From: Cyanophora paradoxa CCMP329
Taxonomy: Eukaryota; Plantae; Glaucophyta
Direction: 5' to 3'
Assembly (NCBI GenBank): GCA_004431415.1
Contig: QPMI01000516.1
Span: 1-64,000 of the forward strand
DNA length: 64,000 bases
Each line of letters starts with the position of its first letter. Position 1 is the stretch's first letter. Positions 22,679-51,600 of this stretch are shown here, piece after piece. The notes beneath the pieces were generated by a model. It did no database searches, was not told the DNA's origin, and saw only the letters and a program-made list of their open reading frames with translations. The translations under genes and the position numbers were made by a program.

Positions 22679-22704
22679 GGTTACGCACGAAGCCTCAGAA
22701 AAAA

Positions 22705-23775: not shown

Positions 23776-23812
23776 TTTACCCCCTTCATTCAGATTTTCT
23801 TGTGACCTCGGA

Positions 23813-24289: not shown

Positions 24290-24307
24290 TTTCTGGAGGG
24301 CCCGCAG

Positions 24308-24475: not shown

Positions 24476-24476
24476 C

Positions 24477-25358: not shown

Positions 25359-25369
25359 CCCCGTACCCG

Positions 25370-25687: not shown

Positions 25688-25689
25688 AC

Positions 25690-27899: not shown

Positions 27900-27941
27900 G
27901 CGCCCATCCACAAAATTTTCTCAACGCACCCCTAAACCACC

Positions 27942-29324: not shown

Positions 29325-29411
29325 ATTGCCAGCTAGATTGCCAGAGAGGGCGAGCCTTGGCCGCCGGTGTGAACCAATAAATTTTCCCACTGGGATCCTA
29401 ACCGAGGCGCG

Positions 29412-30521: not shown

Positions 30522-30543
30522 TTTCTGAGGCCCACGCGAGCAC

Positions 30544-30873: not shown

Positions 30874-30911
30874 ATAGCCCGGATTAAATTTCTAAGGGGC
30901 AGGCGTAAAGG

Positions 30912-31715: not shown

Positions 31716-31768
31716 GTGTAAACGCATGTAATCAATTGCACCAAAAATTCACAATTTATTCGTCCGAG

Positions 31769-32551
31769 CTACTGCATGGGGGCTGTGTACATAGACTCGG
31801 GGTTTAGGTAGGGCTCGAAGCTGGCCTCGTTGTCGTAGGGCCTGAAGGCCAGCTCGGGCGTGCGGCCTGCGAAGCGAAAGGCGCCGACCTTGCACTGCTG
31901 CACGGCGAGGAAGGACCACTTGAGGCCGAACTTGCCCTCGGGGATGGCGTAGGCGGTGTCGATTTTAACGAGGGCGGCCACCAGGTCGCCGGTGCCGATG
32001 GTGGCGCGCTCGGTGATGAGGTAGTTGGACATGTCGACGACGGGGATGGTCTTGCGCTTGCCCGCCATCGTCTGGGTGCGGATGCGCATGTTGAGGTACT
32101 TGTAGAAGGCCTGGCCCGACTCCTTGTCGACCTTGATGCGCACGCTGGGGGTCTGCAGCACCGAGATCTGGTCCTTGGAGAGGGAGCGGCCGGGCGAGAC
32201 CTTGAGCTTGGCCTGGTTCTGCTGCACGAACTCGCAGAATTTCGCGTCCAGGGCCTCGAGCAGCTTGAGGAACTCGTCCGCGGCGGGGTTCGTCTGGCCG
32301 TCGACGGCGCTGAGATCGGTGAGGTCCAGCGTGTAAAATCCGCCGTTTTCTTCCATGACGAAGGCCTTCTTCTCGTCGCTCCACGCCTTGCCTTGCTCGG
32401 TGTTGATGCAGGGGTTGATGGTGACCATGGGCGGCGCGTACATCATGAGGCCCTGCAGGCCGTCGTACTTGGCCTTGATGCGGCCGGTGGCGTCGATCTC
32501 GAAGGCGAGCTTGGCGGGGTCGATCTCGGTGGCGCTGCGGACGGTGGCCAT
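31769..32551 (-). CDS. Single-stranded DNA-binding protein (NCLDV OB-fold type)
   Basis: YTLDL...FLKLLEALD...GDLVAALV...KFGLKWSFLAVQ. Confidence 0.7.
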   Translation of the reverse strand: MATVRSATEIDPAKLAFEIDATGRIKAKYDGLQGLMMYAPPMVTINPCINTEQGKAWSDEKKAFVMEENGGFYTLDLTDLSAVDGQTNPAADEFLKLLEALDAKFCEFVQQNQAKLKVSPGRSLSKDQISVLQTPSVRIKVDKESGQAFYKYLNMRIRTQTMAGKRKTIPVVDMSNYLITERATIGTGDLVAALVKIDTAYAIPEGKFGLKWSFLAVQQCKVGAFRFAGRTPELAFRPYDNEASFEPYLNPESMYTAPMQ

Positions 32552-32661
32552 GGTTGCGTTAGCTTAGAGTGTGCTTCAGCCTAAGGCTAGAAAATATTTG
32601 AGGTCGCCCCGCCCGACTTCAGCTGAGCGCTCAGGTGATTCAGGTAAAACACGTGTTCAAT

Positions 32662-32946
32662 TCAGCTCACTGGGGAGGGGAGGGCCTCGATCACGGCTAC
32701 GCGAATATTCGAGAGTCTAAATCTGGCGCTGGGGCTGGCGACGGCGTACAGGGTGATCTCGTTCTTGGCGGGATTGAGCATGATGTGCTGGAAGCAGTCG
32801 CCCTTGCGGCACTCCAGCGAGATGTTGCGCAGCAGCCTGCAGTAGTTGAAGCAGATCTCGCCGTTCTCGTCGAGATCCTCTTCCGTGGCCTCGTACTCGA
32901 AGATGCCGAAGGTCAGGCAGCAGGTGAAGTACTTGGGGGCGCACAT
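32662..32946 (-). CDS. Hypothetical protein
   Basis: 94-aa ORF bounded by repeated intergenic motifs. Confidence 0.55.
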   Translation of the reverse strand: MCAPKYFTCCLTFGIFEYEATEEDLDENGEICFNYCRLLRNISLECRKGDCFQHIMLNPAKNEITLYAVASPSARFRLSNIRVAVIEALPSPVS

Positions 32947-33054
32947 TCTCTCGTTTGCTGGCCGATAAAGTGTGAGGAAACGAGGCCCCGCGCACCCTCT
33001 TAAGGCCCCGCGTCAGGTGAGCGTCGGGTGAAGCCAGAAAACACGTGTTCAATT

Positions 33055-33528
33055 TCAAAGGGATACAGAGCCCTCGAGATCAAAGGTAATCGACCTATCG
33101 TCTATGCTGAAGGGGTAGCCGCACTGCTGGTGCAGCTGATCGACCTTCATCTTGAGGGAGCCCATCTGCCTCCGCAAGACCCAGATGTTGCAGTCGTAGT
33201 CCTCGAAGAAGGTGTAGGCGAGGGAGCGGCCCGAGGGCGAGATCGCCGCGCAGAACGAGGCCCACTCGGGCACTTTAACGTGGGTGCAGCTCAAGCGCCC
33301 CGCGGAGAAGGTGACAATGTAGGCCGTGTGCCCGGTGTGAGTCTTGGCGCAGGAGACAAGCGTGAAGGAGAGGCCGTCGTCGGAGAGCTTCATGAGGAGG
33401 ATCTTGCCGGGGCAGTCCTTGCAGTCCTCCACCTCGCCGTTCTTGAGAACTTCCACCTCGCGGTCGATGGGCTCGCCGATCGCGCGCACGGTGTATTCCT
33501 CGACGAAGAACTGGGCGACAAGGGCCAT
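33055..33528 (-). CDS. Hypothetical protein
   Basis: 157-aa ORF; TTTATAA and TCACCTGA motifs upstream. Confidence 0.6.
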   Translation of the reverse strand: MALVAQFFVEEYTVRAIGEPIDREVEVLKNGEVEDCKDCPGKILLMKLSDDGLSFTLVSCAKTHTGHTAYIVTFSAGRLSCTHVKVPEWASFCAAISPSGRSLAYTFFEDYDCNIWVLRRQMGSLKMKVDQLHQQCGYPFSIDDRSITFDLEGSVSL

Positions 33529-33633
33529 GTTGCCTGCTGGTTGCGTTGAGAGAGATTGAGAGTGTGAGGGGAACGCAGCGTGCCGCGCGCTTATAAAGGC
33601 CGTTCAGGTGAGCGCTCAGCTGAGTTTCAGGTG

Positions 33634-33704
33634 AGGGCAACTTGAAAATTCGGCGTCATTTACGTCCGCGTCATTTACGTCAGCGTCATTTACGTCACGG
33701 AGTT
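33634..33704. repeat. Third copy of the (GCGTCATTTACGTC)x3 block
   Basis: Direct match to 34484-34534; ~70-bp inverted match to 34886-34955. Confidence 0.92.
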
Positions 33705-33791
33705 GGGACTCGGCCCTGGCCCCGGGCCCAGGCCTCGCCCGTAAAAAAAAGGACTTGGACTTGGCGCCATTTTCTAAAGCTCTGCTGTACC

Positions 33792-34175
33792 ATGGAGCCC
33801 GCCATCTCCCAGCTAGTCTCCCAGGGCGCCAAGCTCGACAAGGCCCTGAACATCTACCTTCAGCTGATCGAGCTGGCCTGGCCCGAGCCAATGATAGCTC
33901 AGGCCTGCAAATCGCTCCACGTGGCGTTCGATGCGCCGTTCTCAGGTGACCCGGATCAGGTGACATCCTGGACCAAGGAGGAGATAAAGGCCGACTTCGA
34001 GGCGCTTTTCTCATTTATGAGCAAGAAGTATGCCGAAATCGAAGCAGCTAAGGCCTCAGCAGCCGAAGGCGGTGAAGCCCCAGCCGAAGGCCCTGCCGGC
34101 GACGAAGGCACCGAAGTTCAAGGCGCTGGGCCCTCTGCAGAGGGCGAAGGCCAAGGCAGACCTGCGTCCGTGTAG
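33792..34175 (+). CDS. Hypothetical protein between repeat copies
   Basis: ATG 33792 preceded by TTTTCTAA. Confidence 0.6.
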   Translation: MEPAISQLVSQGAKLDKALNIYLQLIELAWPEPMIAQACKSLHVAFDAPFSGDPDQVTSWTKEEIKADFEALFSFMSKKYAEIEAAKASAAEGGEAPAEGPAGDEGTEVQGAGPSAEGEGQGRPASV

Positions 34176-34483
34176 CCCCAAGGAGATAGCCAAGGAGGCC
34201 AGCAGCCACAGGCCCGACTGGCCGGCGCCGGCGCCCTACCGCTACCTCAAGCTGGACAAGAGCAACGATACGGGCTTCACCAGGAGGAGGTGGCCTGAGC
34301 CCCTCAGGTGGCTGGAGCCAAGGGAGATCAAGTCCGGAGGCGGTATCGAGCTAGCGCTAGCGCTGGGCGGCGGCGGTGCAGACTTGGAAGAGCAGGCCCT
34401 GCTAGATACCATCAACTTGGGCCAGGTAGAGCTGTGATATCTAGCTAGCGCTAGCGCTTGCTGAATTAATTAACCGAAGGGTC

Positions 34484-34936
34484 GCGTCATTTACGTCCGC
34501 GTCATTTACGTCAGCGTCATTTACGTCACGGAGTTTGCCGGCGACTCGGGACCTGGGCCAGGGCCCGGGGAAAAAAATTCGAGACTTGGAAAAATAGGGT
34601 ATCCCTATTATTTATCGTTATTATTATTACTATTATCGTTATTCACATTGAATGAATGCTTAAATCTATAAAAGGTGTACCGGTACCGGTAGCTAGTAGT
34701 ACTGAGCAAGTAGTACTAAGTAGTACAGTAGTAGTACTAAGTAGTACAGTAGTAGTACTAAGTAGTACTACGTAGTACTAGCGGTACTAGTAGCTACTGG
34801 TACTAGCGGTATTAGGGATACCCTATTTTTCCAAGTCTCGAATTTTTTTCCTCGGGCCCTGGCCCAGGTCCCGAGTCGCCGGCAAACTCCGTGACGTAAA
34901 TGACGCTGACGTAAATGACGCGGACGTAAATGACGC
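34484..34936. repeat. 124-bp inverted repeat with a 205-bp AT-rich/AGTACT-repeat spacer (candidate origin or fused termini)
   Basis: Arms 34484-34607 and 34813-34936 with one mismatch; spacer has 21-bp tandem units and the palindrome TAGTACTACGTAGTACTA. Confidence 0.95.
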
Positions 34937-35007
34937 CGAAGTTTCAAGTTGCCCTTCGTTCGCAGCCTCCGGGCGCCTCCCACAATTTTCCAAGGTACCC
35001 AGCAAGC

Positions 35008-35298
35008 ATGGACTTCACCGATTGCGCAGGTATCAAGCAGGAGCCTGAGGACCTTCTCTCCGTTGCAGCCGCCTCTGCACCGAAGCAGCGCCGCCGCCGC
35101 GGGCCCAAGTCCCTTAGCTCCGAGCCCGAGATCCTGGCGACGCCGGCGCGCGAGCCCGAGGCCGTTGACCTGACCGCAGAGGAGCCCGCGCGCGGCCCGC
35201 CGCGCCTCCTGATCCTGGCCGCCGCGGCCGCCGCGCTCTACTACGCCGCCCGGCGCCTGGGCCCGCAGCTCTCGGGCCTGGCCCGGAACCTTTTCTAA
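35008..35298 (+). CDS. Small protein with C-terminal hydrophobic helix
   Basis: ATG 35008 after ATTTTCC; LLILAAAAAALYYAA. Confidence 0.55.
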   Translation: MDFTDCAGIKQEPEDLLSVAAASAPKQRRRRGPKSLSSEPEILATPAREPEAVDLTAEEPARGPPRLLILAAAAAALYYAARRLGPQLSGLARNLF

Positions 35299-35308
35299 GT
35301 CTTGCCCA

Positions 35309-35650
35309 ATGGAGGCCCTGCTAGATCTCATGGCCTTTGCGCTGCCCATCTTCTTCCTGGTGGGCCTCAGCCGCATGGAGCGCGAGGCGCGCCAGCCCGA
35401 GCGCGTCGAGCGCGGCCTGACCGCGGAAGAGCAGCGCGGCCTCACCGAGTGGGACCTGGCGCTCATGGCCGGCCGCATGCTCGACGGCAACCGGCTCGAG
35501 CCGGGCCACCGCCTCAAGCTAGAGGACGGCGGCACGGCCCTCTGGGACGGCGAGGCCTGGAAGCACGATTCGACGGGCGAGCCGATGAAGCTGCTCGCCT
35601 CCGGCAACAAGTACTGGCGCGGCGACTCGATGGAGTTCCGGCGCCCGTGA
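35309..35650 (+). CDS. Small protein with N-terminal membrane anchor
   Basis: 113 aa; TTTTCTAAG upstream. Confidence 0.6.
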   Translation: MEALLDLMAFALPIFFLVGLSRMEREARQPERVERGLTAEEQRGLTEWDLALMAGRMLDGNRLEPGHRLKLEDGGTALWDGEAWKHDSTGEPMKLLASGNKYWRGDSMEFRRP

Positions 35651-35676
35651 TTTTCTGGTCCCTCTTCTAGTAGAGA

Positions 35677-35961
35677 ATGCCCGACCCCTCGCCCGACCCC
35701 GCCGCAGGTGCCGAGAGCGCGGGCAGCTCGGACGAGTACTCCGAGCTCACGGATCCCGACCCCGACGAGCCCGGCGACGCCTTCGCGACGGAGAACGAGC
35801 GCTCCCTCATGCGCATCTACGAGGCGCTGCGCGAGGCGATCTACTGGGAGGATCCCCGCCTGGGAACCCTGATGAACTTTGCAAAGTTCGCCGAGTTCAT
35901 GTTCGCTATGACCGTGCCCTTCACCCGAGTCGTGCTCTGGGATAGGAACAGGAACTGGTAA
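35677..35961 (+). CDS. Small acidic protein
   Basis: 94 aa; TTTTCTGG upstream. Confidence 0.6.
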   Translation: MPDPSPDPAAGAESAGSSDEYSELTDPDPDEPGDAFATENERSLMRIYEALREAIYWEDPRLGTLMNFAKFAEFMFAMTVPFTRVVLWDRNRNW

Positions 35962-35988
35962 AGGCATTGAATACAACAGTACAGAGCC

Positions 35989-36363
35989 CTACGAGCTAGA
36001 GCTGCTATCGCCCGAGTCCAGGCGCGCCTTCTTGGCCTTGGAGCGGCGGAGGCGGGAGACGTACTGCAGGCGCAGGTTGCGCACTAGGAGCTCGCCGGCC
36101 GTGGTGCCCGGCAGCCCGGGAACCGAGTCCGTGGGCAGCAGCTGTCCCTCGCGTATCGCCTTGTACGTCTTGCGCTTGTTGAATGCAACCTTCTCCGTAT
36201 CCTCCGCGACCGGGACCTCCAGCGCCAGCGCGCGCTTGGCCTTCTTGACGGAGACTGCGTTCGCACGCTCCAGCTTCACTCCGGGCTCCAGGGGGGTAGG
36301 GGCGACTGCGTTCGCCACTGGGTTCTCAGCGAAGGAAACACGGGGGGAAGAGCCGCCGCGCAT
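35989..36363 (-). CDS. Basic hypothetical protein
   Basis: 124 aa; TATTTTCTAA upstream. Confidence 0.6.
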   Translation of the reverse strand: MRGGSSPRVSFAENPVANAVAPTPLEPGVKLERANAVSVKKAKRALALEVPVAEDTEKVAFNKRKTYKAIREGQLLPTDSVPGLPGTTAGELLVRNLRLQYVSRLRRSKAKKARLDSGDSSSSS

Positions 36364-36379
36364 GGTTCGCTCAGTTTAC

Positions 36380-36706
36380 CTAGCGTTTAGAAAATAGCGC
36401 GCGAGTCTCGAGCACCAGGAGACCCGCCACAACCGCTGCGGCGATGACAACGGCCACCTTGAGCCAGTGCCAGAAGCGCTCGGCCCCGTCCGTCAGCGCG
36501 CGGCCCGCCTTGCCCGGTGCGGTGAGCGCGGAGCCCAGGGCGCCCGCCGCAATGTCGGCCCACGCGCCTCCGTCGCCGCGCAGGACGTTCTCTCGGTTCT
36601 TCGTCTCCACCGTGGCGCCAATCGCCGCGTTGATCTCGCCGAACTGCAGGCGCGGCTGGCCCTTGGGGCCGAAGGTCTTCGTGAGCAGCGCATCGAGCCA
36701 GCTCAT
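36380..36706 (-). CDS. Protein with C-terminal transmembrane helix
   Basis: WLKVAVVIAAAVVAGLLVL. Confidence 0.6.
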   Translation of the reverse strand: MSWLDALLTKTFGPKGQPRLQFGEINAAIGATVETKNRENVLRGDGGAWADIAAGALGSALTAPGKAGRALTDGAERFWHWLKVAVVIAAAVVAGLLVLETRALFSKR

Positions 36707-36743
36707 CCTTGGCTAGCTTTCAACCGGGGTTTCGAAAAACTAT

Positions 36744-37221
36744 CTAAATGACCAGGCCGCGCAGGTACCAGACCATCAGGAGCGAGCCGCCCAGCGCCAC
36801 CAGCAGCGGCAGGTGCCCGTCCACGGCGCGCCGCATGCGGTTGTCGCACAGCTCCTGGCAGCTCAGCCGGTTGGCATCGTCGAAGTAGGCGCTCACGGCG
36901 TAGGGGCGGCCGGCCGGCGGGTGCAGCCCCTGGCCCAGGCACGGGTAGGCCTCCGCCTGCCGCCGCGCGGCCAGCGCCGCCGTCGCCGCGTGCGCCGCCT
37001 CCCTCTGCCCCGGCGCGATCGCCACGAGGGCAGCGCCCCCACGCTCCTGCCCTTGCCCGCCCCTTGATCGTTTTCAGCGACGGCGGCGCGGGATCCGCCG
37101 CCTTCACCCTGGGCCCCTCCGCCGCCGCCCCGCCCTTAGCCCTCGCCGCCTCGCCGATCTTGCTGCATCGCGAATCCGATTTGAACACGGTGCACAGCAG
37201 CTTCTCTACCGCGCTCGACAT
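36744..37221 (-). CDS. Cys-containing membrane protein, frameshifted near 37030-37060
   Basis: Start of ORF 36703-37221 plus C-terminal frame 36744-37025 ending in a TM helix. Confidence 0.5.
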
Positions 37222-37316
37222 CTTCGAACGTGTAACGAGAATGAAGAAAATTTAAAAGGGAACGCCAACGGACTCGGAACTCGGAAAAGGGGGAGGGGAG
37301 AATGAACTTTGAAATG

Positions 37317-37505
37317 TTAGCGCCCGGCGGGGCGCATGCCGGCCGCCGCCTGCGAGGCGCCGCCGGGGGCGTAGAGGGACTTGGCGGCGTAGCCGAAGCC
37401 CACGCCTATGACCGCCGAGGCCGTGGGGGTGCCGCCGAGGAGCCAGGTGAGGGTCGCGGCCAGCGCTCCTAGCGAGTAATGGGCAGGATAAGCTTCGAAG
37501 GCCAT
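37317..37505 (-). CDS. Small two-TM membrane protein
   Basis: MAFEAYPAHYSLGALAATLTWLLGG...; TTTTTTCTCA upstream. Confidence 0.6.
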   Translation of the reverse strand: MAFEAYPAHYSLGALAATLTWLLGGTPTASAVIGVGFGYAAKSLYAPGGASQAAAGMRPAGR

Positions 37506-37564
37506 CGCGGGACCGAATTGAGGGAGGGTTGAGAAAAAATACCGCCTCGGGGGCCTCGGGGGCC

Positions 37565-40500
37565 TCAGTGGTGCAGGTGCCGGAAGCGCGCCTGGTCCTC
37601 GGCCTCCTCGCGCGCCGCCTGCTCCTCCGCCGCGTCGATCTCCGCCCGCGAGGCCTCCAGCGCCGCGGCCGACGCGTAGTCCTTGAGCACGGGCACGCGC
37701 CGGTAGCTGTAGCCGAGGCCCTTCGCCAGCCCCGCCGACTCCGCCTCGAACGCCCGCCAGCGCTCCGAGGCTTCCGCGCCGGCGATCTGGCCGGCGCGGA
37801 AGCCCGCCTCCAGCTCGGCGCGGAAGGCGAGGGTGCGCTGGAGGCGCTGGGCCCAGAGGCCCTGGCGCCGCTCCTCCGCCTCGCGCGCCTGGCGCGCCGC
37901 CAGCGCCTGCCGCTCGGCCTCCTGCTGGGCCCCGAAGCCCTGGATCGCGGAGAGGACGGCGCCGGGGCCGGGGAGGGGGACGGGGCTGCGGTCGGCGAGG
38001 GAGAAGGGGACGGGGCTGGGGCCGGCGCTGCTGGAGGGGGCGGCCGAGGCCGAGCGCGCACGCGAGCCCAAGGCCGAGCGCGAGCCCGAGCTGCCGTAGC
38101 CGCTGGGGCCGGCGCCGCCGTCCACGGGGCTGCTGCGGAAGCTGCCCGCGGGGGAGGCGCCCTCGCCCTGGCCCGAGGGTCAGGAGGGGGGCGGGGGAAA
38201 GGGGGGTACGGGGAGGGCGCGGGTGCGGGGCCGGACCTGGCGCGGCAGCATCTCGTCGATGCGCTGCTGGCCGGCGTGCTGCTGGGCGGCGGGGGCGAAC
38301 GACGGGGGCGGGGGCGGGACGAAGCCGGGGGCCGAGTTGCGGGCGCGCTTGCCCCTGCCCCTGGTCGAGGCCTTGACGGGGAAGGGGCCGATCTCCGGGT
38401 CCGCCGGCAGGGTGAAGCGGATGGCCTGCAGGGCCGGCTGGCTCGCGCCGAGGGAGAGCGGGGCCTTGGGGACGATGCCGCGGATGTAGGTCTCCCAGAC
38501 GCCGCCGGCCTTGTAGGAGAAGAGGCCGCACTTGGGGCCGAAGGCGGCGATGGTCTCGTCCAGCGCGCCGTTCTCGATGTCGGCGGCGAGGGCGGCGGAG
38601 GCGTCCGGGCCCTCGGTGCGCGAGACGTACTCGCAGATGCCCGCCACGCTCGTCATGCCGCCCTCCGTCTCCGAGCCGACGAGGTAGGTGGTGGGGTCGA
38701 CGACGCAGTGGGTGATGATGAAGCGGGTGAGGGAGCAGGAGGCCGTCTCCTGCCAGAAGGCGAGGCGCTTCTCCCGCAGCCACGCCGGCTCGAAGGCCTG
38801 GATGCACGTCGCCTCGCCGTCGGAGAGCGCGTGGATGATCTTCCAGGCGTAGGTGTAGGCCACCACGTTCAGCGCCGGCAGCTCGTTCTCGCGGATGTCG
38901 GCCTGGAGGTGGGTGCGCTTCTTGAGCGGCTTGTGGTCGAGCGTGATGAGGACGATGCGCGAGAAGAACTCCAGCATGCGGTTCGCGAGCTGCGCGTGGG
39001 AGGGGTGAGAAAGGAAAGGAAAGGAAAAGGAAAGGAGGGGGGCGAACCTGGGGAAAGCCGTTGCAGACGATCACAAGCGACTTGCGCAGGGGCCTGCAGC
39101 GCCGGTCGTTGCCCTTCGCGAACTTGAAGTTGCGAGCGTAGGCGTCGCCCGAGCGCATCTTGAGCTCCTCCTCCGTGCAGGCCTTCGGGTCGAGGCCCTC
39201 CGCCATGATCATGCAGAGCGCCTCCTCGCCGCCGTGCTCCGAGAAGGCCGAGCCCCTGGAGGGGCGGTAGACGCAGATTTGACCCGGCGCGTAGCACTCG
39301 TTCATGATCCCCGTCACCGTCGACTTGCCTGCGCGCGCGGCCGCGGCGTCAGAGAGAAAGGGAAAAGGAAAGGAAAGGAAGGGGGCGCACCGGTGCCAGA
39401 CTGGCCCTTGATGACGCCGCAGTACTGCAGCTGGGCGCCCTCCGCCGGCGCCTCGAACTCCGCGCGCGGCGCACGGTCGAAGACGGGCTTGTCGCAGAAG
39501 TGCCACGGCCCGACGGTGTTGAAGGCGTAGAGGACGGCCGCCGCGTACCCGATCTCGTCCGGCGTCACGTAGCCGTTGTCCGCCAGGTGCTGAGCGCACT
39601 TGGGCATGTGGCCGATGAGCATGGAGAGGACGCGCGGGAAGTCGACGTTCGCCGCCGCCTCCTCGATGCCGTCCGGCAGGCGGCCCTGGATGTAGCAGGT
39701 GTTCATGTAGCCCTTGTACCGCTTCTCCGCCACCTCGTGCGTCATGATGAGGACGCAGGCGTCGCCGTTCTTGTCCTGCGGCGTCCGCACAACGAAATCT
39801 GCGCAAGGGAGGGCATCAGGGGGGTGCCGACCGGGAGGGGTAGGGGGGTACGGGGCGCACGGGAGTCGCAGGCGAAGGGGTGGCCCGGGATGACGGGCAT
39901 CTCGGGGCAGACGTCGTGGAGCAAGAGAGACTTCTCCACGAATCGGCGGATCTCCCCCGTGAGCACCTCCTTGGAGAAGGTGAACTCGAACAACTCGGGC
40001 TTGTCACCGTACGCGGCGTGAAAGGCCATCGCCAGCTTCGAGATCACCTCGTCCATCGTTCCGTTGCCGTCGAACTGCGTTGCGGTGACCTTCTCGTAGA
40101 CGAAGCAGCCCGGCAGCTTCTGCATGAAGACGGGGTCCTCCCCGGGGGCCATCGGCCGCTTGCGTGCGATTCCCTGCGGGCGCGGGCAAAAAGGGCGTTA
40201 GCGGGGCTCGATCCAGGGGAGGGGGGCGCACCGGCCGGAGGCGGCCAGCGCCTTAAGCAGCTGGGCCACGGCCGCCTCCGGCCTCTAAGGGGGCGGGCGC
40301 GCAGTCAAAGGGGCGCACCGACGCAGAAATCCAGGCGCGCAGCGAGTCCTGGATGGCAGCCTTCTTGCGCGCCATGTTGTCGTCCTTGTGCGTCGTCACT
40401 CGTTCGTACCGGCGCGTGTTGATCACCGGCGCCGGGATGACCGTCGCCGCCAGCTCCACCCGCGCCAGCTCCAGCTTGTTCGCGCGCGGCGGCTCGTCGT

Positions 40501-41146
40501 CGCTTGCCGTCTCCAGGCCCTCGTCGTAGTCCTTCTCCGCCCCCGCCTCCCGCCGCTGCCGCTGCCGCTCCTGCCGCTCGCGCTCCTTGCGCTGCTGGGC
40601 CCGGCGGGAGCGGGGCGCGGAGCGGGGGGCCGGAAGGGCAGGAGGGGCCGGAGGGGCCGGAGGGGCCGGAGGGGGCATGTGGGCCGGCGGCGGGAGCTGT
40701 GAGAGGCGCACCGGGCTGAACTCCCTGAACGCCGAGGGGTTGCCGCTCGGGCGCCAGGAGACGTCGGAGGCGGCGGGGCTGGCGGGGGGCACGGGGGCGG
40801 GCGGGCGGCGGGGGGAGACGAGGGGCGGCCTGGGGCCAGCGTCGCCGGGCTCGTCGTCCGAGAACTCCTCCACGGGCGGCGGCGGGGCGTACTCGAGGGA
40901 GGGGGAGGGCGGGAGGGGGTAGAACTCGTCGACGGGGGGCTCGGGCTCGAAGGTGTCCCCCGCCGCCGCCGCCGCCAGCTCGGCGTCGGCCTCGCCCTCG
41001 CGCTCGCGCTCGCGCTCCAGCTCCATCGCGTACTCCTCCGCCACCTCCAGCTCGCGCGCCGCCTTCGCGTCCGCCGCCGCCGCCAGCGCGGCCTCCTCCT
41101 CCATCTCGCGCTCGGCCTCCAGCTCCTCCTCTGTGGGCAGGGTCAT
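37565..41146 (-). CDS. Intron-containing SF3 helicase (6 predicted introns); may be fused to the upstream gene
   Basis: GT..AG introns at 40261-40318, 40174-40231, 39799-39860, 39329-39390, 38990-39047 and 38168-38236. Splicing gives GQSGTGKST, MIMAE, VIVCN and FFSRI. The junction at 40174 needs a 1-nt correction. Confidence 0.8.
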
Positions 41147-41174
41147 TCCTTTGCGGCGCCGGAACGCCCTAGGC

Positions 41175-42868
41175 TCAGAATTTTGGGGTGGGGAGGGCGC
41201 ACCGGCCGGCTCGGGCCGGCCGCCTTGGGGCCGCCGCCTCCATCTGCTCGCCGAGATCGCGCCGCGCCGCCGGGGCGGGCGCGTCCTCCTTCTCGAACTT
41301 GAGGTTGATGTAGGCGACCTTGCCCTTGCCCTTGCCCTTCGCCTGGGCCTGGGCCTGGGCCACGCGCATGGCGCGCGCGAGGCCCTCCGCCGTGATCTTG
41401 CTAACTCCGGCCCCGTCGCCGGAGGCGGAGGCCGTCGCCTCGCCGATCGCCGCCTGGAAGGCCGCGGCCATCGCCCGGCCGGCGCGCGGCAGGCTCCGCG
41501 CCCGCTCGAGCTCCTCCTCCGTGAAGTCCAGCGCCCGGGCCGCGGCGGCGGCCTCGGCGTCGCGCTCCTCCTCGGAATCCGAGCCGGAATCCGAGGACTC
41601 CGTGGCCGCGAGCATGGGGCGGGGGCGGGAGGCGGCGGCGGCGGCGGCGGCGGCCGCCTTGTCGAAGACGGGGACGAAGAAGGCGAGGGCGAGGGTGCGC
41701 CGCGGCACCACGTACTTCACGGCGCCGTGGATCATGGGGCGCCCGTGCGAGTCCGGCATCGAGCACCGCCGGATGACCTGCGAGGGGGTTTAAATGGCAT
41801 CTAAATAGTCTAAATAGCATCTAAATAGTCTAAATAGCATCTAAATAGCATCCAAATAGAAACGGCACACCTGCACGCGGTCGCCGATGGTGACGCCGGG
41901 CACCTCGAACTCCGGAACCAGGTCGAAGGCGCAGATGCCCTGGCGCCCGTGGCGGTCCCGGCACGTCCGGCAGGCCGCCTCCAGCACGATGCGGATGGCG
42001 TAGGCGTCGGTGAGGACGCCGGTGTCCGGCCGCTCGCCCCAGACCGCCGAGCTCTCGTGGCGCGTGATGAAGTCGCGGCTGTTCTGCTTGATGCAGCGCA
42101 CCTCGATGCCCATGATGCCCTTCGCCAGCATCTGCGGGCCGGCGGGGGTCGGCGGGGAGGGGCGGCCGCGGCTGCGCGGGCGGCTGGGGCGCACCTCGGG
42201 CTTGTAGGCCGGGTCCGAGCTGAGCACCAGCAGCCAGAGCAGGTGCCCGGCCGCCTCCGCCATGCGGTTGAAGTAGAACTCCTCCGGGCCCGTCAGCAGG
42301 CCAATCGTGCGCCACTCGCCCTTGGCGATGTGCCGGGGCACGGCGCCCATGAGCAGCCGCAGGCGCTGCGCCGCGAACAGCCGGCGGGCGTCGGCATCGC
42401 GCCCGGGCTTCGGCTTGCTCGGCGTGTCGAAGTTCTCCTCCGTCATGTTCAGCGCCGCGTGCATCGCCCGCACGTCCGCGTCCTGCGATGCGCCGCGGCG
42501 CCTCAGCCGCTGCGAGCGCAGAGAGAAAGAGGCAGCGAGCACCTCCGCGAGCCGCAGCCGCGACAGGACGGAGTCGATGGAGAACTGCACCGACGGGCCG
42601 GGGGCGCCCTCGAGGTTCAAGGTCCGCGCCGCGGCCAGCTTGCGCTTGCGCTCGGCCAGCTCGGTCTTGCGCAGCACATCCTTGCTGTTCGGGCTGAACT
42701 GCATGCCGTCCTCCAGCGCCCGGGCCTGCGCCTCCTTTGCCTGGTCGCTGATGCCGGCCTCGAAGACCGTCCAATCGATGCCAAAGCTGTCGCCGATGCA
42801 GAGAACGTCGTACAGCGTGTTCCTCGCCAGCTTAGCCGGGATCTCCGGAGGGAGCGCGAGCCGAGACA
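41175..42868 (-). CDS. Intron-containing hypothetical protein (possibly the N-terminal part of the helicase gene)
   Basis: Introns 42132-42194 and 41778-41870 join the ORFs in frame; a 34-nt GTGCGC..AG intron at 41169-41202 would fuse it in frame to ATG 41146. Confidence 0.65.
41791..41859. repeat. CTAAATAG(CAT/T) minisatellite inside a predicted intron
   Basis: About seven tandem TAAATAG-type units. Confidence 0.85.
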
Positions 42869-43209
42869 TGCTGCCGCCGCTGCTGCTGCCGCCGCTGCTG
42901 CGCGCGCTCTGCTGGGAGTGCTGCGCGCGCTGCGAAGGTTCTGGCGCCAAGTTCCCAGCCGATTTGAACGAGCGGCCTGCATTGCATCGCCAGAGAGAAA
43001 AAGCGAGAAACCGACGGGGGGTTGCAGCCTGGGGGGGTACGCGATTTTGAGGGGGGGAGAAGCGCGCTTCAAGTCTGAGTCTTTGCGAGTTAGGGGGGGA
43101 AGAAGTCAACGGGGGAATAAACCGTGAACGGAATCCGTTGAGACGTTGTTGTGAACCCCGCGGGCACTAACAGCTGCGCACGTAGTTCGTTAAACCCGTC
43201 TGCCGCACC

Positions 43210-45729
43210 ATGCAGGCGGCGACCTTCCGCTCGTGCGCGAAGCAGCAGCAGCCCGGCGAGCAGGACAGCATAGCCCGCGATCTCGGCAGCCTGTCAGCGG
43301 AGGAGGCGCTCAACGCGATGACCTACGATAGCGTGTTCAACTCGGCCGGCGTGCCGCGCTTCGAGCCGTTCGGCGGGCTGAAGAAGATCCAGAACACGGA
43401 CGGCCACCCGAAGCACTTGAAGACCAAGGGCCAGTTCACGCCGGTTAATAAGTTCAACGAGGTTCGCGGTTTCGCCCGCACCGCTTCGGCCCCGGCTCAC
43501 ATGCCCCGGCTCGCGTGCCCCGCGCGCAGATCGTGCCTTACAGCATTCACGAGCTGCCGGAGTATGTGAAGGCGAAGTACGGCTTCACGCACGGCGATGT
43601 GGCGCTGTTGCTGATGTCCGACAATGCGGCGGCGGGCTGCTTCAACAGCATCGCGCTCCATCGCGATTTCCATCCGCGCGCGATCTTCTCCGGCACTCCG
43701 GAGCAGAAGGAGTTCCTCGCGGACCTCAAATCCGGCAGCGGCGGCGCCCACGGGGTGAGGGCCCTTCCCTGCGCTCGCGTGCCCGCGCTTGCTCACGCGC
43801 GGGCCGCCGCAGCTCTTGATCGCGCGGGATCAGTGCCTGGCGTCGGTGACGGAGAAGGAGAAGGCCAGCCCGTCCGGCCTCGGCGTTCGGTGCGATTACG
43901 TCATCGTCACCAAGCGCATCAACCCGACGTACGCCAAGAAGTACGACCTCAACTTCGTCTACGTGAAGGAGGGGCCGCCGGCCTCGCAGTACACCGTCAC
44001 CGTCCAGGCCGGCATCTGCGCCGGTGAGACCATCCAAGGCGCGTACCACGGCGTCGGCACGCTCCCGTCCGGCGGCTTCTTCGACGTCGTTGATCACATG
44101 TTCCTCTCCTGCGCCGATGACATTTACGTGCGCGAGAGCCCGCCCTTTCCCCTTTCCCCTGCCCCTGCGCGCGCTAAGGTCGCGTCCGCAGGTCGGAGAG
44201 AACCCGAGCGCGGAGAGCCCGCTGGGCTACGCGTACTGGCTGGTCAGCGTGCAGAAGGTGCTCTCCTGCGCGGCCCTTCGGAAGTACGCCAGCGTCTGCG
44301 ACTCCGGCATGCGGCCCCAGCTCCAGCTTCTCGTGGATCAGGGCCGGAGCGACGAGGCCCGCCAGCGCCACCGCGATCTCGCGCGGGCGGCCGTGCTGAA
44401 GCTGGAGGAGGTTCTGCGCGAGGGCCACCCAAACGGGCCGGCCCGCGCCCGTGAGATCCTCTCGGTGGCCATCTCCGTGATCGTCGGCGAGCTCTCGCAC
44501 ACGGTCCGCCGCCGCCCCGCTTAGCCCGCCTCTCCTCCCTGACCCCGGGCCCTCGGAGCGCAGGAGGAGTCGGACGTTCTCACGGCGCGGGCGGACGAGT
44601 TCCAGCGCCAGGCGGAGAAGATCAAGTGCTGGTACGAGAAGGTGAAGAAGGCGGAGGAGACGGACCTGCGCGACTGGGGCAGCAAGAGCGGCGACGCCGA
44701 ATTCGACCGCGACAAGCTCAAGCGCGTCTTCTACTGGATGCGCATCTGCGCCAAGCTGGAGGCGCTGATGGACGAGTGGCACATCGAGGGCGTCCGTCTG
44801 GCGAAGGCGATGATCGCCATGGAGTGGGGCCACGGCCACCCGGCGCGCAAGGAGTGCAGCATGCTGGCCAAGGAGATCGGCCGCCGGGCCGCTACATCAA
44901 GGAGGTGGCCTACGGTATCGAATGTGCGTCCGCCCCGCCCTTGGCCTGCGCCCCGCCCTTGGCCTGCGCCCCGCGCTCTCCCCGCTCACCCCTCTCCCGC
45001 AGTTACCATCCCGCTCGTCCAATTCTTCCAGCGCGAGTTTGTGCTGATCCAGGCCTCCATCATCAAGATCGGGTCGCTCTCCGCCAAGGAGGTGGACGAG
45101 GCAAGGGACGAGGGCCAGGCGGAGGCGGAGGCGCGCTGGGACGATGCGGCGTTCAGCGCCGTCTGGGGCGTCGGGGACAACGCGCTCTCGCCCCCGCCCC
45201 GTTCGGCTTCAGCGGGCGGCCCGCGCTGGCGTTCGACGAGCACGGCCTCCCCGAGCTGGCGGAGGCGGACGCCGTCGGCTTCAACTGGGCGACGTTCGAG
45301 GCCCGCATCGACGAGAAGGCGAAGGAGGCGCAGATGCGGCTGCTGGAGGAGGGCCTCGTCCCGGCGCCGGTGCCCGCGCCCTTCCCCCTTCCTCTCCTCC
45401 TCGGCCCCTCTCACCGCCTCCTCCAGCCCCCGGCGTCCTCGGCTCCGGCGTCCTCGGCTCCGGCGTCCTTGGCTCCGGCGTCCTTGGCTCCGGCGCCCTC
45501 GGCCCCGGCCCTCTGCCCCACCTACGGAGAGAGGTGTGCCCACCGCGCCGATTGCGCCCTCAACGGCTCCCACCTCCTGCCCGCCAAGAAGGCCCGCCTC
45601 GGCCTCTTCTCACCCCACCCTCTCAGCCCGGTGAGTGACTCTGAATCGGAGGGCTCGGAGGCCTATAGCACGCCCCGCGACCCCGACGCCCCGCCCCACA
45701 AGGCCGGCGCCTTCGGCTTCTGTGAGTGA
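43210..45729 (+). CDS. Intron-containing protein of unknown function (at least 5 introns)
   Basis: Introns 43462-43529, 43755-43812, 44128-44191, 44504-44563 and 44924-45002 link successive ORFs; apparent 1-nt indels at ~44880 and ~45190; 3' end uncertain. Confidence 0.7.
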
Positions 45730-46302
45730 CGCCCCCGCGCAGGCCCTCTCGGCGCCGCCCGTCGCCAACCGCGCCGCCTTCGTCCAGGTGAGTGCCCGGG
45801 CTGCCGCGAGTGGCGGCTCGAGAACTTCTCGGCTCAGGTCCCCGCCACGCAGCAGGCCGGCGCGATCCCGGCCTCGCCGCCCGTGACCGTCGACGTCGAG
45901 GGCGGTATGTTCGAGATGGAGCTGGAGCCGGCGCCCTCGCAGGCCCTCGCCACCCAGGGCTCGGCCCCGGGCTCGCCGCCGCCGTCCCAGCCCTCCCTCC
46001 CCTGGTGCACGCCAACTCCAACATCTTCGAGGGCTGCTGAGGGCCCTGAAACGGTGCGCGCAGGCCCGTCCCGCCCTCCCAGAGCAAGTGGTCCACAACG
46101 CCATAGTGGACGCCATGTGGGATAACAGGGGCCGCCTCCCCCACCCCTTCCGCTACGTCTCTATGGCCCTCCGCGGCCTCGCCTTCCCGCCCCCCTGCAC
46201 CGAGCAGCTCAACCAAATCCTGCGCGGTCTGATTCATTACAGACTCGCCTACCCAGCCTGGGCCTGAGCTACACCAAGCTACGGTGAGTCCGACCAAGAG
46301 AC

Positions 46303-46354
46303 GTGTCCGGACCCTCCCTACTTTCTTTATAGATTATTGGAAAGGTCCGGACAC
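46303..46354. terminator. Hairpin with AT-rich loop between convergent genes
   Basis: GTGTCCGGACC ... GGTCCGGACAC abutting the YqaJ stop codon. Confidence 0.5.
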
Positions 46355-47010
46355 TAGAGGAGGGCGTACGACTTAAACTCGCGCAGCGCCGCCTGCTCCT
46401 CGCTGAGGTTCTCTGACTTCATTCGATCGCTGTAGGGCTCGGGCGGCGTGCCCTCCTTGACGTGCATCCAAAATAGATGTAAGCACTTCCTCATGAGCTC
46501 GATGTACCTCTCGTCGCGCCTGACGTACCACGTTTGCACGCGCAGAGGAGTGAAGCAAAAAAGTTCGGCCCACTCGCGGCCCGTGATGTCCAGAAGTCCT
46601 TGTAGTTGGGGCATGTAATAAGTAGGAACTTTATCGTACAGTTCGCCCTTGTACGGGCATTTCACCTCTAAAATTCTATCATTTCCTATAAGTCCGTCGG
46701 GACTACCGGCGAGGAACGGCATTTCTTTATGTTCGTGCAGTCCAGTATGTTTCACGTCCACGTTATTGTTCAGTGCCTTGTAGATAGAGACCGCGAGGGG
46801 CTCATAGTCATGCCCATAGGTTAGGGCAGGGTTGTCAAAGTTGTTTTCCTCCGCTATCCCGCTTAGCTCCGCCCAGAGGCGGGCCCTGGATTTCCAGGGA
46901 TTTATGCCGCACGCAGCCGCAAAGTTCGAGGCAGTTAGCTTTTCGCGGCGCGCCGCGTGCCACGCCGCGCTCCCCTGTTGCAAAGTCTCGCAATCTGTAT
47001 CGGTATGCAT
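46354..47010 (-). CDS. YqaJ/lambda-exonuclease family recombinase (PD-(D/E)XK)
   Basis: QGSAAWHAAR..LTAS, GHDYE, LAGSPDG, LEVKCP, YYMPQLQ. Confidence 0.93.
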   Translation of the reverse strand: MHTDTDCETLQQGSAAWHAARREKLTASNFAAACGINPWKSRARLWAELSGIAEENNFDNPALTYGHDYEPLAVSIYKALNNNVDVKHTGLHEHKEMPFLAGSPDGLIGNDRILEVKCPYKGELYDKVPTYYMPQLQGLLDITGREWAELFCFTPLRVQTWYVRRDERYIELMRKCLHLFWMHVKEGTPPEPYSDRMKSENLSEEQAALREFKSYALL

Positions 47011-47060
47011 AGCTTAGCCTCGCAGTGGCGTTTAGAATTTCTTGATGTGTGCAATTGCAA

Positions 47061-47758
47061 ATGTCCGATGCAGAGGAAGCGCCCAAGGACGTGATCGCAC
47101 AGTTCATAGATCAGGTCAAGGACCTTAGACGCTGGGTGGTAGAGCAGGCCTCGCGACCGAATCGACAGCGCCAACCCTGGCCGGTGCTAGAGCTGGCCCG
47201 GGCAGGGTGGCTAGACACGCATTACAACTCTGGCGGGGCCCTTTACGTTCGGAGCCACGACGAGGGCAGGATTATCGACGAGTTCAAGCGCATCTGGTTC
47301 GCCCTGGGCTCCAAGCTCAGCATACTCTCGACCCTCCCGGACCACATTCGCATGCAAATCCTCGAGTGGTACGCGAAGGCAAGGGACTCGCAATGGGACG
47401 ACGTAAATTTGCGCGACCTCTCGCGCTTGCGCTCGGCTGTGACGGCGTATGTCACAAACTATGATTATCACGTCAAAAAGCCCCAATTCGAAGTTGAGCC
47501 AATTCCGATGAATCTGGTACCCCTGGGATGGGAAGAGTACCCCGAGTACTCGTGGAACAGGGGCCTCAACCCCCGCGCCAGGCCCTGCCAGCCCCGCCCG
47601 CCCCACCGATAAACGGCCCCGCCCCGCGTGACGTCAGACGGGACATACGCGAATGGGAGGAGTGGAGCAACGACCCGAAGAACTGGCTACCCGGGGAGGC
47701 GGAGCTGCGCAAGCGCGCGAGGCTGATGCCCGGCGACAGGTACCCCGACCGCGAGTAG
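47061..47758 (+). CDS. Hypothetical protein, probable frameshift near 47590
   Basis: ORF 47061-47612 appears to continue in frame 47528-47758; divergent from YqaJ. Confidence 0.5.
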
Positions 47759-47795
47759 GGGGTACAGGTATAAATTCTCAGCGAGCCGCGAGCAA

Positions 47796-48521
47796 ATGTC
47801 GTACGGCGATCAGGAAGCATGGTTCAAGCTACACCGCCTCTTTCCTGATAAATTCGGCAATGCGCGCTACCCCCTCAACCTAATGACACGAGTCAACCGG
47901 CGGACCAGGGAATTCAAAATCGAAGTGTTTTCATCGTCCCCCGAGAGCGGCCGCTCCGCGGACAACGACTCCATGGCATGGTTATACGGCTTCGTCCAGC
48001 CTCGCGTCGGCAATAAGCCAGCCACCGTCGAAATAGAAAGCTACTACAACGATTACGGGCCGCAGGGGGGGTACGGGACGCCCGAGCAGAGGGATTCGAT
48101 GCGGGGGGCGGGCAAAATCCTGATGCGGGCCGCTGTAGACGCACTGCAGCGCTCCGGGCTCATTAGCTCGTCGGACCCGGGCGAGCACGCGGTGGAGCTC
48201 AGGGCCCTCCCGGACGCAGTGGAGTACTACGAAAGGGAATTGAGTCTGCGCAAGAGAGACCTCGCCTTTCTCACCTACACACCGTCCCTAACACCCATGG
48301 AGGGTACGGTGCAGAACATCATCGACAACACGTACAACGTGGCCGTTCGCTGGCGCAAAGCGGCGGCGGATCTCGTAAAGGGCAACTACAAGGACCTCGC
48401 AGACGAAGACAACCCCGTGGGGGAGTACATGGAGCTGGCAAGCGGGAGCATCGTACCCCGCCGGAGGCCCCCAAGGCCCGACCCCGACCTCGAGTGGGGA
48501 CCGTCGCACTTCGGCCAGTGA
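47796..48521 (+). CDS. GNAT-like acetyltransferase-fold protein
   Basis: MRGAGKILMRAAV acetyl-CoA loop; VELRA..AVEYYE. Confidence 0.5.
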   Translation: MSYGDQEAWFKLHRLFPDKFGNARYPLNLMTRVNRRTREFKIEVFSSSPESGRSADNDSMAWLYGFVQPRVGNKPATVEIESYYNDYGPQGGYGTPEQRDSMRGAGKILMRAAVDALQRSGLISSSDPGEHAVELRALPDAVEYYERELSLRKRDLAFLTYTPSLTPMEGTVQNIIDNTYNVAVRWRKAAADLVKGNYKDLADEDNPVGEYMELASGSIVPRRRPPRPDPDLEWGPSHFGQ

Positions 48522-48561
48522 GGGGGTACGGGTAGATATTCTCAGCGAGTCGCATTGCTCT

Positions 48562-48653
48562 TGTCCCGGGTCCCTGGAATCTTAATATAAATTTTCCGGG
48601 GACCCGGGACACTCCCGGTCAGACGATTCTTCAATTGGGGGTTCAATTGGGGG
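48562..48653. repeat. 18-bp stem hairpin with TCTTAATATAAATT loop, followed by tandem TTCAATTGGGGG x2
   Basis: Arms 48562-48579 / 48594-48611 (one mismatch); direct repeats 48630-48641 and 48642-48653. Confidence 0.9.
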
Positions 48654-51600
48654 TACAGAATTCAGTTAGAGCCTGAGCCTAGTCAGAGGCCGGGAGGGCC
48701 CCCCTGGGGGTACGTCGGCTGTTACTCCCCGCGTCGGTTAGTGCTAGCCCCCCTGTTAGTGCGGGGCGTACCTGATCGCAATATAACACCCAAACCTCCA
48801 TGACGCGTGACTCATGCAACCTCCGAGGGTTAACAATGCATTGACAGCGAAGGGGCAAGCTCGAGAGCTCGACCTTTGGCAAGAGCCCACCATATATATA
48901 GCTGACCAGCTGGCCCAGTGGATATGGCCATGGATTCCGATTCCGCTGACCAGCCGCTGGCTGGCAGAACCCCAGCGGGTCAGCCTAGCGAGACGGTCAA
49001 GATCTGAATCCGTGAAAGCAAGCCTGGCAAGCTTTAGTCGTCATATGCATATGCATGGTGTTGGACGCGTCGAACCGACTCGAACGCTGCGCGCGCGCGT
49101 GTGCCGGGCCCGCGGCCAGCAGTGCCCAGCACTAGTACTGCGCATGCCGCGAGTGCGCATGCGGCATGCATGCGCATAAAGCTGCATATATGCATGTGCA
49201 TGTGTTTGCGCTGTGCATGTGGCAGCGCGGCCGGCCGTAGTATCAATCCGTCCGTATACGTATACGCTGATCATGAGCCGTCTCCGAGTTTGTAAGCAGC
49301 CTCTGCAACCGCACGCGCGGCGCCCGGCAGCTGCAGCCTCTGTAGCTGGGCCCGCGGCCATGGCCATATGCATGGGCAATTGCAACCGCGGCCTGCCATC
49401 GGTATTGCCATTGCAACCGGTGCCAACCCCGCGCGGCCGGCGTCGGCATTCGCACCTGGACAGACGGCGGCAACACCCGCTACGAGCGCATATGCGCATG
49501 CGTGCGCATCAGGCATCAGGCCCAGATCATCCTTCGACGCGCATAACCTCGCGATCGATAGGAGCAGCGCGTACACACATATATATGGCAGCACCGGCTT
49601 TCCGCATGCTGCGGCCATCGCCTGCCGAGGCGGTGCATGCATGTGGACTAGTACTCGAGCCCGTGATCGGAGCGAGCTCGAGCACGCTCAGAAAGGGCGA
49701 CGCCAGCTTGCTATCCGGCCGCGGCCAGCGCCGGCGCCGGCGCCCGCCTCGAGCTCGCAATCGGATGCGGCAGCCGAGGATTTCGAATTCCGCGGCCGCT
49801 AGTGCTGCATTTCGAATTCGCACGCAGCCGAATCCAGCACGCGCATACGTGCGCGCGGTACTGTCCACCGGCTCCGCGGCCGGCGCCATCGCCGCCTTTC
49901 TCGTAGTGGCAGTTGCCCTCGCGCTGCTCCCGCGGACCCTCGGTCAGGGTACGTTTCTGTACATGTGCCATTAATATTGCTTCCGGATTCGGCCTGCCGC
50001 CCCCTACGTATGCCCATTTGCAATCCCTCCGCCCCTCCAACCTCCTTAAGCTTCCCCTGCCGCCCCCCCCCCTCCCCTCCTTCTCCCCCTGCCCCCTCCC
50101 CTGCCACCCCCCCCCCCCCCCCCCCGCCCCGCACCCCCCCCCCCCCCCCCTTTCGAATTCTTCCAACCATCCATATCCTCCGGCCCCCGCCCCCGCCGGG
50201 CCCCCGGCCCTTCCTTGATCTCCTCTAGACAACGACATGCATTTTACTGATGCAGATCGCTTCCCAACGCATGCGCAGCCGGTCTCGACCCCTCGCCGGA
50301 GGCCTACAGCGTATCGTTCAAAGCGCACACGCCGCCTGCCTTTGGACGCCGCATGAGGGCGGATTTGGTCTTCTTTCGCAACGCGAGCGGAAGCTCCAAA
50401 CTCCTGCTCATCGGCGGGGGCGTCGACGAGGCCTGGGTCTATGATATTGGCGCGTTCTGTTGGCACTTGAACCGAATCCAGCTCAGAAATTAATCATAAC
50501 GCCCGTGCGCAGGCGCTGACCGGTGGGAGCTGACACCCATGAAAGTCCCGGCGGGTTATGGCATCTCTTTGTACGACATCAAATGCATCTGGGATGAGGC
50601 GTCCAAGATATAGTGAAGCATTGTATTTTAATGGTTAGATGCATTACATCCTTCTAATCTTCTCGAAGTTGCACTGGAGCTCGAGGGGGCAGCATTCCTT
50701 TTGGAAACTGCTGGTATTGTTTCGGTATGATTTCTCATGATTAATAAGCAAACTCTATTGCCGTCTAACCTCTTCCCTCGCCTTTTTCTGCATTACCCGG
50801 GTGCAGAGACAGACTCTGGAGACTCAAGAATCCAATCGAGCAATCACTTCTGGTCCTTTCCAACAACGATGGACTTGGCTGGTATAGAAATGCTACCGCA
50901 CTCTATTCCCTTATTCGGCCGCAACGATCACTGTGCGTAGTACGTGCTGGCTCTGTTGCGAATTGAAGTGCAATTGCTACTTAACGATCAGCGATCGCGC
51001 GAGCTTCTGAATCTCCATTTTATATTTCGAAGTGCCAGTTTGCTGAGCTTTAAAACTCTGACGCGTTCCTGCATGCACAGGCCTAACGTATTACAACGGA
51101 AGTATCTATGTGCGTGGCTTTAAACAGACATGGATATATGCATCGATTTGTTTTTCAAATTGACCTACGTGTACTCCGACTCATCGCTCGACATTTGGCG
51201 ACCAGGCCGCTGCAGGAACGGCCGGAGGGGACTGCTATTCATTTTCAGCGTGCCCAAATTTCGAGTCCCTCACATCACAGCCGGGTTCAGGCTACCGAAA
51301 CGATCTCGTCCGGTGCTACGGATCGCGATCGCGATTTCGTCTTATGTCCTCTTATATTTATTGTTTGGAGGGGGACATCCTCGCCCTTCGACAGATACTC
51401 CATCGCAAATCGCATTTGGACTACCGAAATTTCGCTCTGGCAATCGACAATGACGCCACGAAAATTCCCGATATGCGCTCGGAGTGGTGCGTGCTTACAA
51501 ACCGCAACCGTATACTGTGACTGTATTACTGACGCTCGTTAACTCGCATCGCCCGAGCAGGCAGTCGATTTTATATCGCAGCCGGCTTAAACCTAAATAC

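Follow-up and report, generated by a model that had tools for sequence, protein, structure and literature searches.

Evidence for an intron-containing, likely replicative helicase gene in an integrated gamadvirus-like mriyavirus of the glaucophyte Cyanophora paradoxa

The 'Gamadviridae' (Mriyaviricetes), among them the Pleurochrysis endemic viruses and Phaglo-G, are described in the available parts of PMC11253617 as viruses of ~40 kb that encode a capsid protein, an A32 ATPase, RuvC and PDDEXK nucleases, ssb-like and VLTF3-like proteins, a duplicated HUH endonuclease and a large helicase with an unknown N-terminal domain. The same material (Yutin et al. 2024) reads frameshifts in this helicase, SF3_hel2, as degradation, and its supplement lists 8 of 16 gamadvirus genomes in which SF3_hel2 is spread over 2-4 open reading frames (ORFs); the word 'intron' occurs 0 times in those parts of the main text and text supplements. 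Here we analyze 64,000 nucleotides (nt) from the glaucophyte Cyanophora paradoxa CCMP329 (contig QPMI01000516.1, positions 1 to 64,000; hereafter the window), which carry an endogenous virus that resembles the 'Gamadviridae' in size and in this gene content and differs from them in its glaucophyte host and in a helicase that is not SF3_hel2. Our reading, to which we assign a probability of about 0.8, is that the window holds the intron-containing, likely replicative helicase gene of an integrated mriyavirus, and that introns in this gene, spliced likely by the host spliceosome, are likely a trait inherited among these viruses and not decay after integration.

Intron-rich early genes are already known in other viruses. 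As far as the accessible portions of these sources go, the punuivirus of Chlamydomonas (10.64898/2026.10.09.758095) is likewise integrated, its latent genes having spliceosomal introns and its virion genes a viral promoter, but it is a 617-kb giant virus with introns in 61 of 506 genes, whereas the window element has them in two of ~30, one being the replication helicase. Intron-rich mirusviruses (PMC12768974) share GT-AG introns, ORFs inside introns and a nuclear trap model, and the same source describes introns restricted to early genes in demutoviruses and pandoraviruses; mirusviruses and pandoraviruses are, however, other virus groups, and the mirusviruses richest in introns have them in morphogenesis genes. 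The string 'mriya' occurs 0 times in PMC12768974. Mriyaviricetes-related regions reported from a Glaucocystophyceae assembly (10.1101/2025.04.19.649669) probably represent elements of this kind in a host of the same class; that study states that introns were not considered, and the parts covered contain no helicase model. No paper on mriyavirus introns was found by title or start of abstract, a search with most subscription literature outside its scope, and the available parts of 10.64898/2026.06.19.733378, 10.1101/2022.07.28.501842 and PMC13768754 contain nothing on the subject.

To examine splicing, contigs from three probable RNA runs (three studies; 3 of 10 runs guessed to be RNA) and two DNA runs (of 14) were compared with the window across 36.3-47.2 kb. 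The helicase gene is divided by nine GT-AG introns with a pyrimidine-rich 3' part, arranged as follows:

37565..42869, minus strand: helicase gene, 10 exons, product of ~1,540 amino acids (aa)
42869-42543, 42482-42195, 42131-41871, 41777-41203, 41130-40319, minus strand: exons 1-5
40173-39861, 39798-39391, 39328-39048, 38989-38237, 38167-37565, minus strand: exons 6-10
42483..42542, minus strand: intron 1, 60 nt, in frame; joint in 3/3 RNA runs, 0 in DNA run X2
42132..42194, minus strand: intron 2, 63 nt, in frame; joint in 3/3 RNA runs, 0 in X2
41778..41870, minus strand: intron 3, 93 nt, with AT-rich repeats and stop codons; joint in 3/3 RNA runs, 0 in X1 and X2
41131..41202, minus strand: intron 4, 72 nt, linking the N-terminal half with the helicase half; record arithmetic (X17, X18)
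40174..40318, minus strand: intron 5, 145 nt; record arithmetic (X15, X18)
39799..39860, minus strand: intron 6, 62 nt; joint in 3/3 RNA runs, 0 in X2
39329..39390, minus strand: intron 7, 62 nt, splitting the Gly codon of GKS in Walker A (phase 1); X15 record arithmetic
38990..39047, minus strand: intron 8, 58 nt, in the interval between motif C and arginine finger; indirect (frame, X17 bin depth)
38168..38236, minus strand: intron 9, 69 nt, with an in-frame stop; indirect (loose ends of one sibling copy, RNA X15 vs DNA X2)

Excision of these introns yields a single frame of 1,539 positions, with an X placed over one break near 41203-41227 in exon 4, where the window is two single bases short of the runs (one seen in 5/5 runs, one inferred), probably through assembly error. 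The original prediction, made from the letters and their ORFs, had proposed a helicase with up to nine introns, its fusion into a single protein of ~1,550 aa and the reconstitution of Walker A on excising 39390-39329; nine introns are indeed found (four as RNA joints, five indirectly), ~1,540 aa result and GQSGT-GKS is obtained. Two of its details had to be corrected. The fusing intron, put at 34 nt, is really 41202-41131, of 72 nt, since in both X17 and X18 the pieces are separated by 10 letters and a 34-nt intron needs 47; the 1-nt fix invoked at one junction is unneeded, 40318-40174 being one 145-nt intron. A two-intron reading of that same interval was rejected on the records of X15 and X18, as was a 33-nt first intron on the run records. 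Intron 5 contains a mini-exon-like stretch, which the RNA contigs skip.

Most of the junctions are also modelled in other copies: host gene models of siblings, 1,435-1,519 aa long, can be aligned over the helicase junctions, and the host annotation, whose models are predictions and not independent proof, places the junctions of introns 1-8 in 11-16 of 17 siblings. The peptide GTGKS spanning intron 7 is present in 14 of these 17 models and the intron 8 junction peptide in 11, and the same junctions are found in siblings just 61-72% identical overall. Sibling models P0002-P0015 are mosaic, with a near-invariant N-terminal domain and a helicase half of two types ~70% alike, a pattern that suggests recombination between copies.

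Direct joints for introns 1, 2, 3 and 6 occur in all three probable RNA runs and have depth 0 in DNA among the joints listed, while introns 4, 5 and 7 follow from record lengths and introns 8 and 9 from indirect signs. For the Walker A intron, record 3 of X15 leads to 39547 if spliced and to 39485 if unspliced, with depth counted at 39516-39517 (one run), and DNA record X2-20 crosses the intron unbroken. The helicase introns are likely spliceosomal (U2-type), removed in RNA yet present in DNA. A scan with a splice-signal matrix did not separate the intron genes from the capsid gene (7.2 vs 10-12 matches per kb). RNA contigs also span the small intronless genes at 36.3-37.5 kb, where one further feature lies past the helicase stop:

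37470..37543, minus strand: probable intron, GT..AG, whose removal strips the next small gene's start from read-through RNA

A joint 37469-37559 (with 5 other letters) is present in 3/3 RNA runs and 0 in X1.

Regulated splicing of the helicase might itself decide between latency and replication. Unspliced helicase RNA would be dead, since four of the nine introns change the reading frame and one interrupts Walker A, and latency genes are intron-rich in the punuivirus (10.64898/2026.10.09.758095, available parts). Spliced contigs nevertheless come from three separate studies, the RNA of ordinary cultures gives no hint that a gate is shut, no retained-intron isoform is shown and the splice signals are ordinary; we regard such a switch as unlikely.

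The P-loop core of the protein (38950..39420, minus strand) contains GQSGTGKS, IMAE ~40 residues on, VIVCN and FSR, in that order, which we take to be Walker A, a Walker B-like motif, a motif C-like element and an arginine-finger-like element. Motif order and spacing match those of phage D5-type superfamily 3 (SF3) helicases, with one acidic residue in Walker B. Compared with D5/P4-type SF3 primase-helicases, the window helicase is alike in the spacing of Walker A, B, C and arginine finger and unlike them in that no primase domain is detected, with no profile match above threshold. Pfam gives AAA matches only (AAA_22), below cut-off, and searches of PHROGs, NCBIfam, PDB and phage sequences return nothing. 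Of the original label of viral SF3 helicase, the motif order and spacing stand, and the profile search of libraries gave it no match above threshold; the SF3 assignment is one of motif level, with modest support. The N-terminal part belongs to no known family:

41660..42869, minus strand: N-terminal region of ~330 aa, near-invariant among copies

The comparison was extended to environmental viruses with 80 IMG/VR loci (the best 80 of 138) retrieved with an alignment of 25 gamadvirus-type ATPases. Seven of eight helicase loci from gamadvirus contigs carry introns (22 in total; one locus partial), with 21 GT donors and one GC donor, AG acceptors throughout and lengths of 59-549 nt; 18 of the 22 break the frame or hold a stop, and their excision yields ORFs of 1,209-1,375 aa. 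Junctions in the conserved part align gap-free with orthologs that have no intron, and when all cut pairs that restore the frame were ranked blind by protein score, a GT-AG pair came out near the top for 9 of the 14 breaks (chance <=0.024 for each). One intron common to L085 and L086 agrees in column, codon and phase and encloses in each a homologous antisense ORF (60% over 84 aa, zinc-knuckle-like), L084 and L090 share an N-terminal intron site, and a phase-0 intron precedes the last exon in 7/7 loci, in a poorly aligned region. An intron interrupts Walker A in two of the loci, L086 at phase 0 and L092 at phase 1, the latter like the window, and such splits in unrelated helicases may be parallel gains. 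The gamadvirus helicase breaks published as decay are, judged from these sequences, likely intact genes that require the host nucleus, which would overturn the published view of decaying genes with a dispensable N-terminal domain. That prokaryote-style gene callers miss a gene of this kind, as originally predicted, agrees with the 2-4 ORFs of SF3_hel2 in half of the gamadvirus genomes of PMC11253617; virus catalogues built with such callers lose intron-split helicase genes.

Two further observations concern these loci. Antisense ORFs lie in long helicase introns of L085 (5527-6045) and L086 (2856-3392 and 1421-1927), one pair being homologous. The SF3_hel2 of L084-L092 matches the D5-type profile weakly (33%), and it may be worth re-examining its superfamily with DUF927/Cch-type helicases as the comparison.

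Control genes from the IMG/VR loci behave differently from the helicase. The ATPase has breaks in 6 of 80 loci, each a stop or a shift by 1 nt without added DNA, and the capsid gene has one shift in 38 loci plus several in-frame insertions, with no intron-type break in either; splits number 0 of 74 for ssb, 0 of 78 for VLTF3 and 0 of 31 for RuvC. In line with the original prediction of intron-free structural genes, capsid and ATPase of the window are single ORFs, identical to host gene models. Of the 28 intronless window ORFs, 23 have a motif WWTTYY at 11-50 nt upstream (background 7%), and among IMG/VR genes from nine families it precedes 216 of 395, again with a background of 7%; it is absent before the window helicase and its divergent partner gene (described below), and the block formed by these two genes has high GC and no late motif.

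These data bear on a history in which the viral gene integrated without introns and acquired those of the host only later, its copies then multiplying or being domesticated. Window introns do look host-like, with the donor GTGCGC in 7 of 19 and the acceptor GCAG in 15 of 19, no free relative of the window helicase was found, and PMC12768974 says, in the portions available, that introns in endogenous nucleocytoviruses have been taken as decay. Such a gain is nonetheless quite improbable in our view, given that siblings so far diverged have identical junctions, that the adjacent capsid and ATPase genes stayed intron-free and that environmental gamadvirus helicases also have introns.

Several points weigh against our reading of inherited, spliced introns. 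Five of the nine helicase introns are indirectly supported; the RNA evidence consists of contigs alone, from runs whose type was guessed, without raw reads, strand or expression level; and the runs carry sibling copies, mostly 95-99% alike, so that splicing is demonstrated for the family and not for the window's own copy. The environmental introns are read from DNA sequence alone, some of those loci may be integrated copies, and the blind ranking is not significant at 3 of the 14 breaks, with 2 unscored. The capsid control does not rule out in-frame introns without stops. WWTTYY was chosen after inspecting the window and precedes 2 of 7 gamadvirus helicases, which, set beside its frequency in other IMG/VR genes, makes the motif general and the contrast with helicases weak. 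At the protein level, hhalign against five phage primase-helicases (a sixth, with a variant Walker A, was excluded, and shuffles kept Walker A) gave 80%, E 1.4e-5, over 49 columns, with 1 of 300 shuffles equal to it; structure models had a predicted local distance difference test (pLDDT) of 31 and 33, and neither was used. Similarity to SF3_hel2 is absent by phmmer, hmmsearch and hhalign, and, against 1.84 billion representatives, an 874-aa sibling queried with residues up to Walker A only gave 13/13 matches to close copies from Cyanophora. Free relatives, which the original prediction had named for comparing introns, were found by our searches for none of helicase, capsid and ATPase. With no relative beyond Cyanophora and no SF3_hel2 similarity, the introns of the window helicase cannot be dated.

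On our preferred reading, helicase and partner would be early genes that share a host-type promoter and are transcribed by host RNA polymerase II, and the helicase, as a hexamer, would open the DNA during HUH-primed rolling-circle replication, following the model of PMC11253617. Late genes, activated by late factors of the virus, would be those that lack introns and have the T-rich motif upstream. The passage of early genes through normal host mRNA processing would explain why introns gather in them; the introns would tie the virus to the nucleus and need not serve as a switch. The original prediction had late genes escape nuclear transcription. RNA covers the intronless genes at 36.3-37.5 kb, and neither DNA nor RNA polymerase was found among the 53 ORFs scanned, a scan that intron-split genes could escape; with no RNA polymerase there, late genes likely use the host polymerase too. 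As a tentative and rather doubtful extension, gamadvirus-branch mriyaviruses might keep introns almost only in the early helicase, across two unrelated helicases and in some cases with conserved antisense genes, host splicing controlling replication of the integrated copy. The same branch would be a candidate for the lineage nearest the giant-virus ancestor. The introns add sequence evidence for a mriyavirus dependence on the host nucleus that was previously argued from missing polymerases alone, and a multicopy mriyavirus-like element that is transcribed in an alga available in culture makes induction, early and late promoters and rolling-circle replication testable.

The endogenous virus measures ~40 kb (approximate span 8600..48800), in the 35-45 kb class with a capsid of nucleocytoplasmic large DNA virus (NCLDV) type and an A32 ATPase, and no terminal repeat was found within the window. 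Besides the helicase and its partner, its genes include:

27942..29324, plus strand: major capsid protein, Pfam Capsid_N; single ORF, identical to host model P0041
22705..23775, minus strand: A32 packaging ATPase, Pfam Pox_A32; single ORF
18061..20899, minus strand: two tandem HUH endonuclease genes (long, short); HxH and YxxK-type motifs align with gamadvirus HUH proteins
21120..21823, plus strand: VLTF3-like gene in two frames; label inferred from a TFIIB zinc ribbon and family match
23264..24289, plus strand: RuvC/A22 resolvase, Pfam Pox_A22; in 58/80 IMG/VR loci
31769..32551, minus strand: ssDNA-binding-like protein (ssb-like, label inferred); in 72/80 IMG/VR loci
46354..47010, minus strand: PDDEXK/YqaJ nuclease, Pfam YqaJ; in 68/80 IMG/VR loci

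The VLTF3-like gene is matched in 77 of the 80 IMG/VR loci. Both the 'Gamadviridae' trait of a duplicated HUH (HUH_long + HUH) plus ssb and the Mriyaviricetes traits of an HUH endonuclease with RuvC and PDDEXK nucleases are present, and outside the host the nearest relatives of the ATPase are gamadvirus-type proteins at 46-55%, a Pleurochrysis entry included (among the best 120 of 264 matches). Judged from this gene set, the element is a gamadvirus-like mriyavirus, multicopy in C. paradoxa; because the window helicase is not SF3_hel2, we class it as gamadvirus-like and not as a member of the 'Gamadviridae'. Sibling proteins bear the EukProt label Cyanophora paradoxa, and the window capsid and ATPase ORFs are identical to entries there. 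Host gene models of the siblings include 17 helicases (at least 600 aa) and ~30 capsids, copies being assessed from gene-model names and not from the whole host genome. Two ATPases from ENA and Logan contigs, P0063 and P0068, are 90% and 80% identical to the window's and represent close relatives beyond the reference assembly. HUH (20058-20899) and the VLTF3-like gene (21120-21823) each lie in two frames without extra DNA, resembling the other single-base gaps.

The partner gene is divergent from the helicase and also spliced:

43210..46545, plus strand: divergent partner gene, 10 spliced introns; joints in 3/3 RNA runs, 0 in X1

Several single-base gaps in its window sequence relative to the runs look like assembly error, and a motif of 38 aa recurs in this gene and in the N-terminus of the helicase (47%, E 1.4e-8). 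Helicase and partner could be a host-type, transposon-like module of two genes that entered the virus and also moves alone, an idea to which we give little credence. It would fit a helicase other than SF3_hel2, the high GC of the block and its missing late motif, a partner without a match in the 80 IMG/VR loci, and 9 of 17 sibling helicase models with no capsid model listed on the same contig. Seven of the 17, however, lie 7-14 gene numbers from a capsid model, as in the window (one more lies at 58), no transposase or terminal repeat is seen, and the element has no other helicase while 55 of 60 mriyaviruses encode one. The partner transcript splices on through the antisense strand of YqaJ (45631-46545, plus strand). 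Read-through of partner and helicase transcripts over their neighbours could dampen late genes.

Elsewhere in the element, 33634-34955 holds three TGACGTAAATGACGC-type repeat blocks, two of which form a 127-nt inverted repeat, a candidate replication origin or regulatory site. Positions 1-8400 of the window belong to a separate Polinton-like element of low GC (~43%), which encodes a PriCT-2/DUF5906 primase-helicase (in broken frames), an rve integrase, an AdoMet decarboxylase and a 1,031-aa endonuclease VII protein, whose motifs we take to be polymerase-like. A hairpin at 8389-8481 adjoins the mriyavirus.

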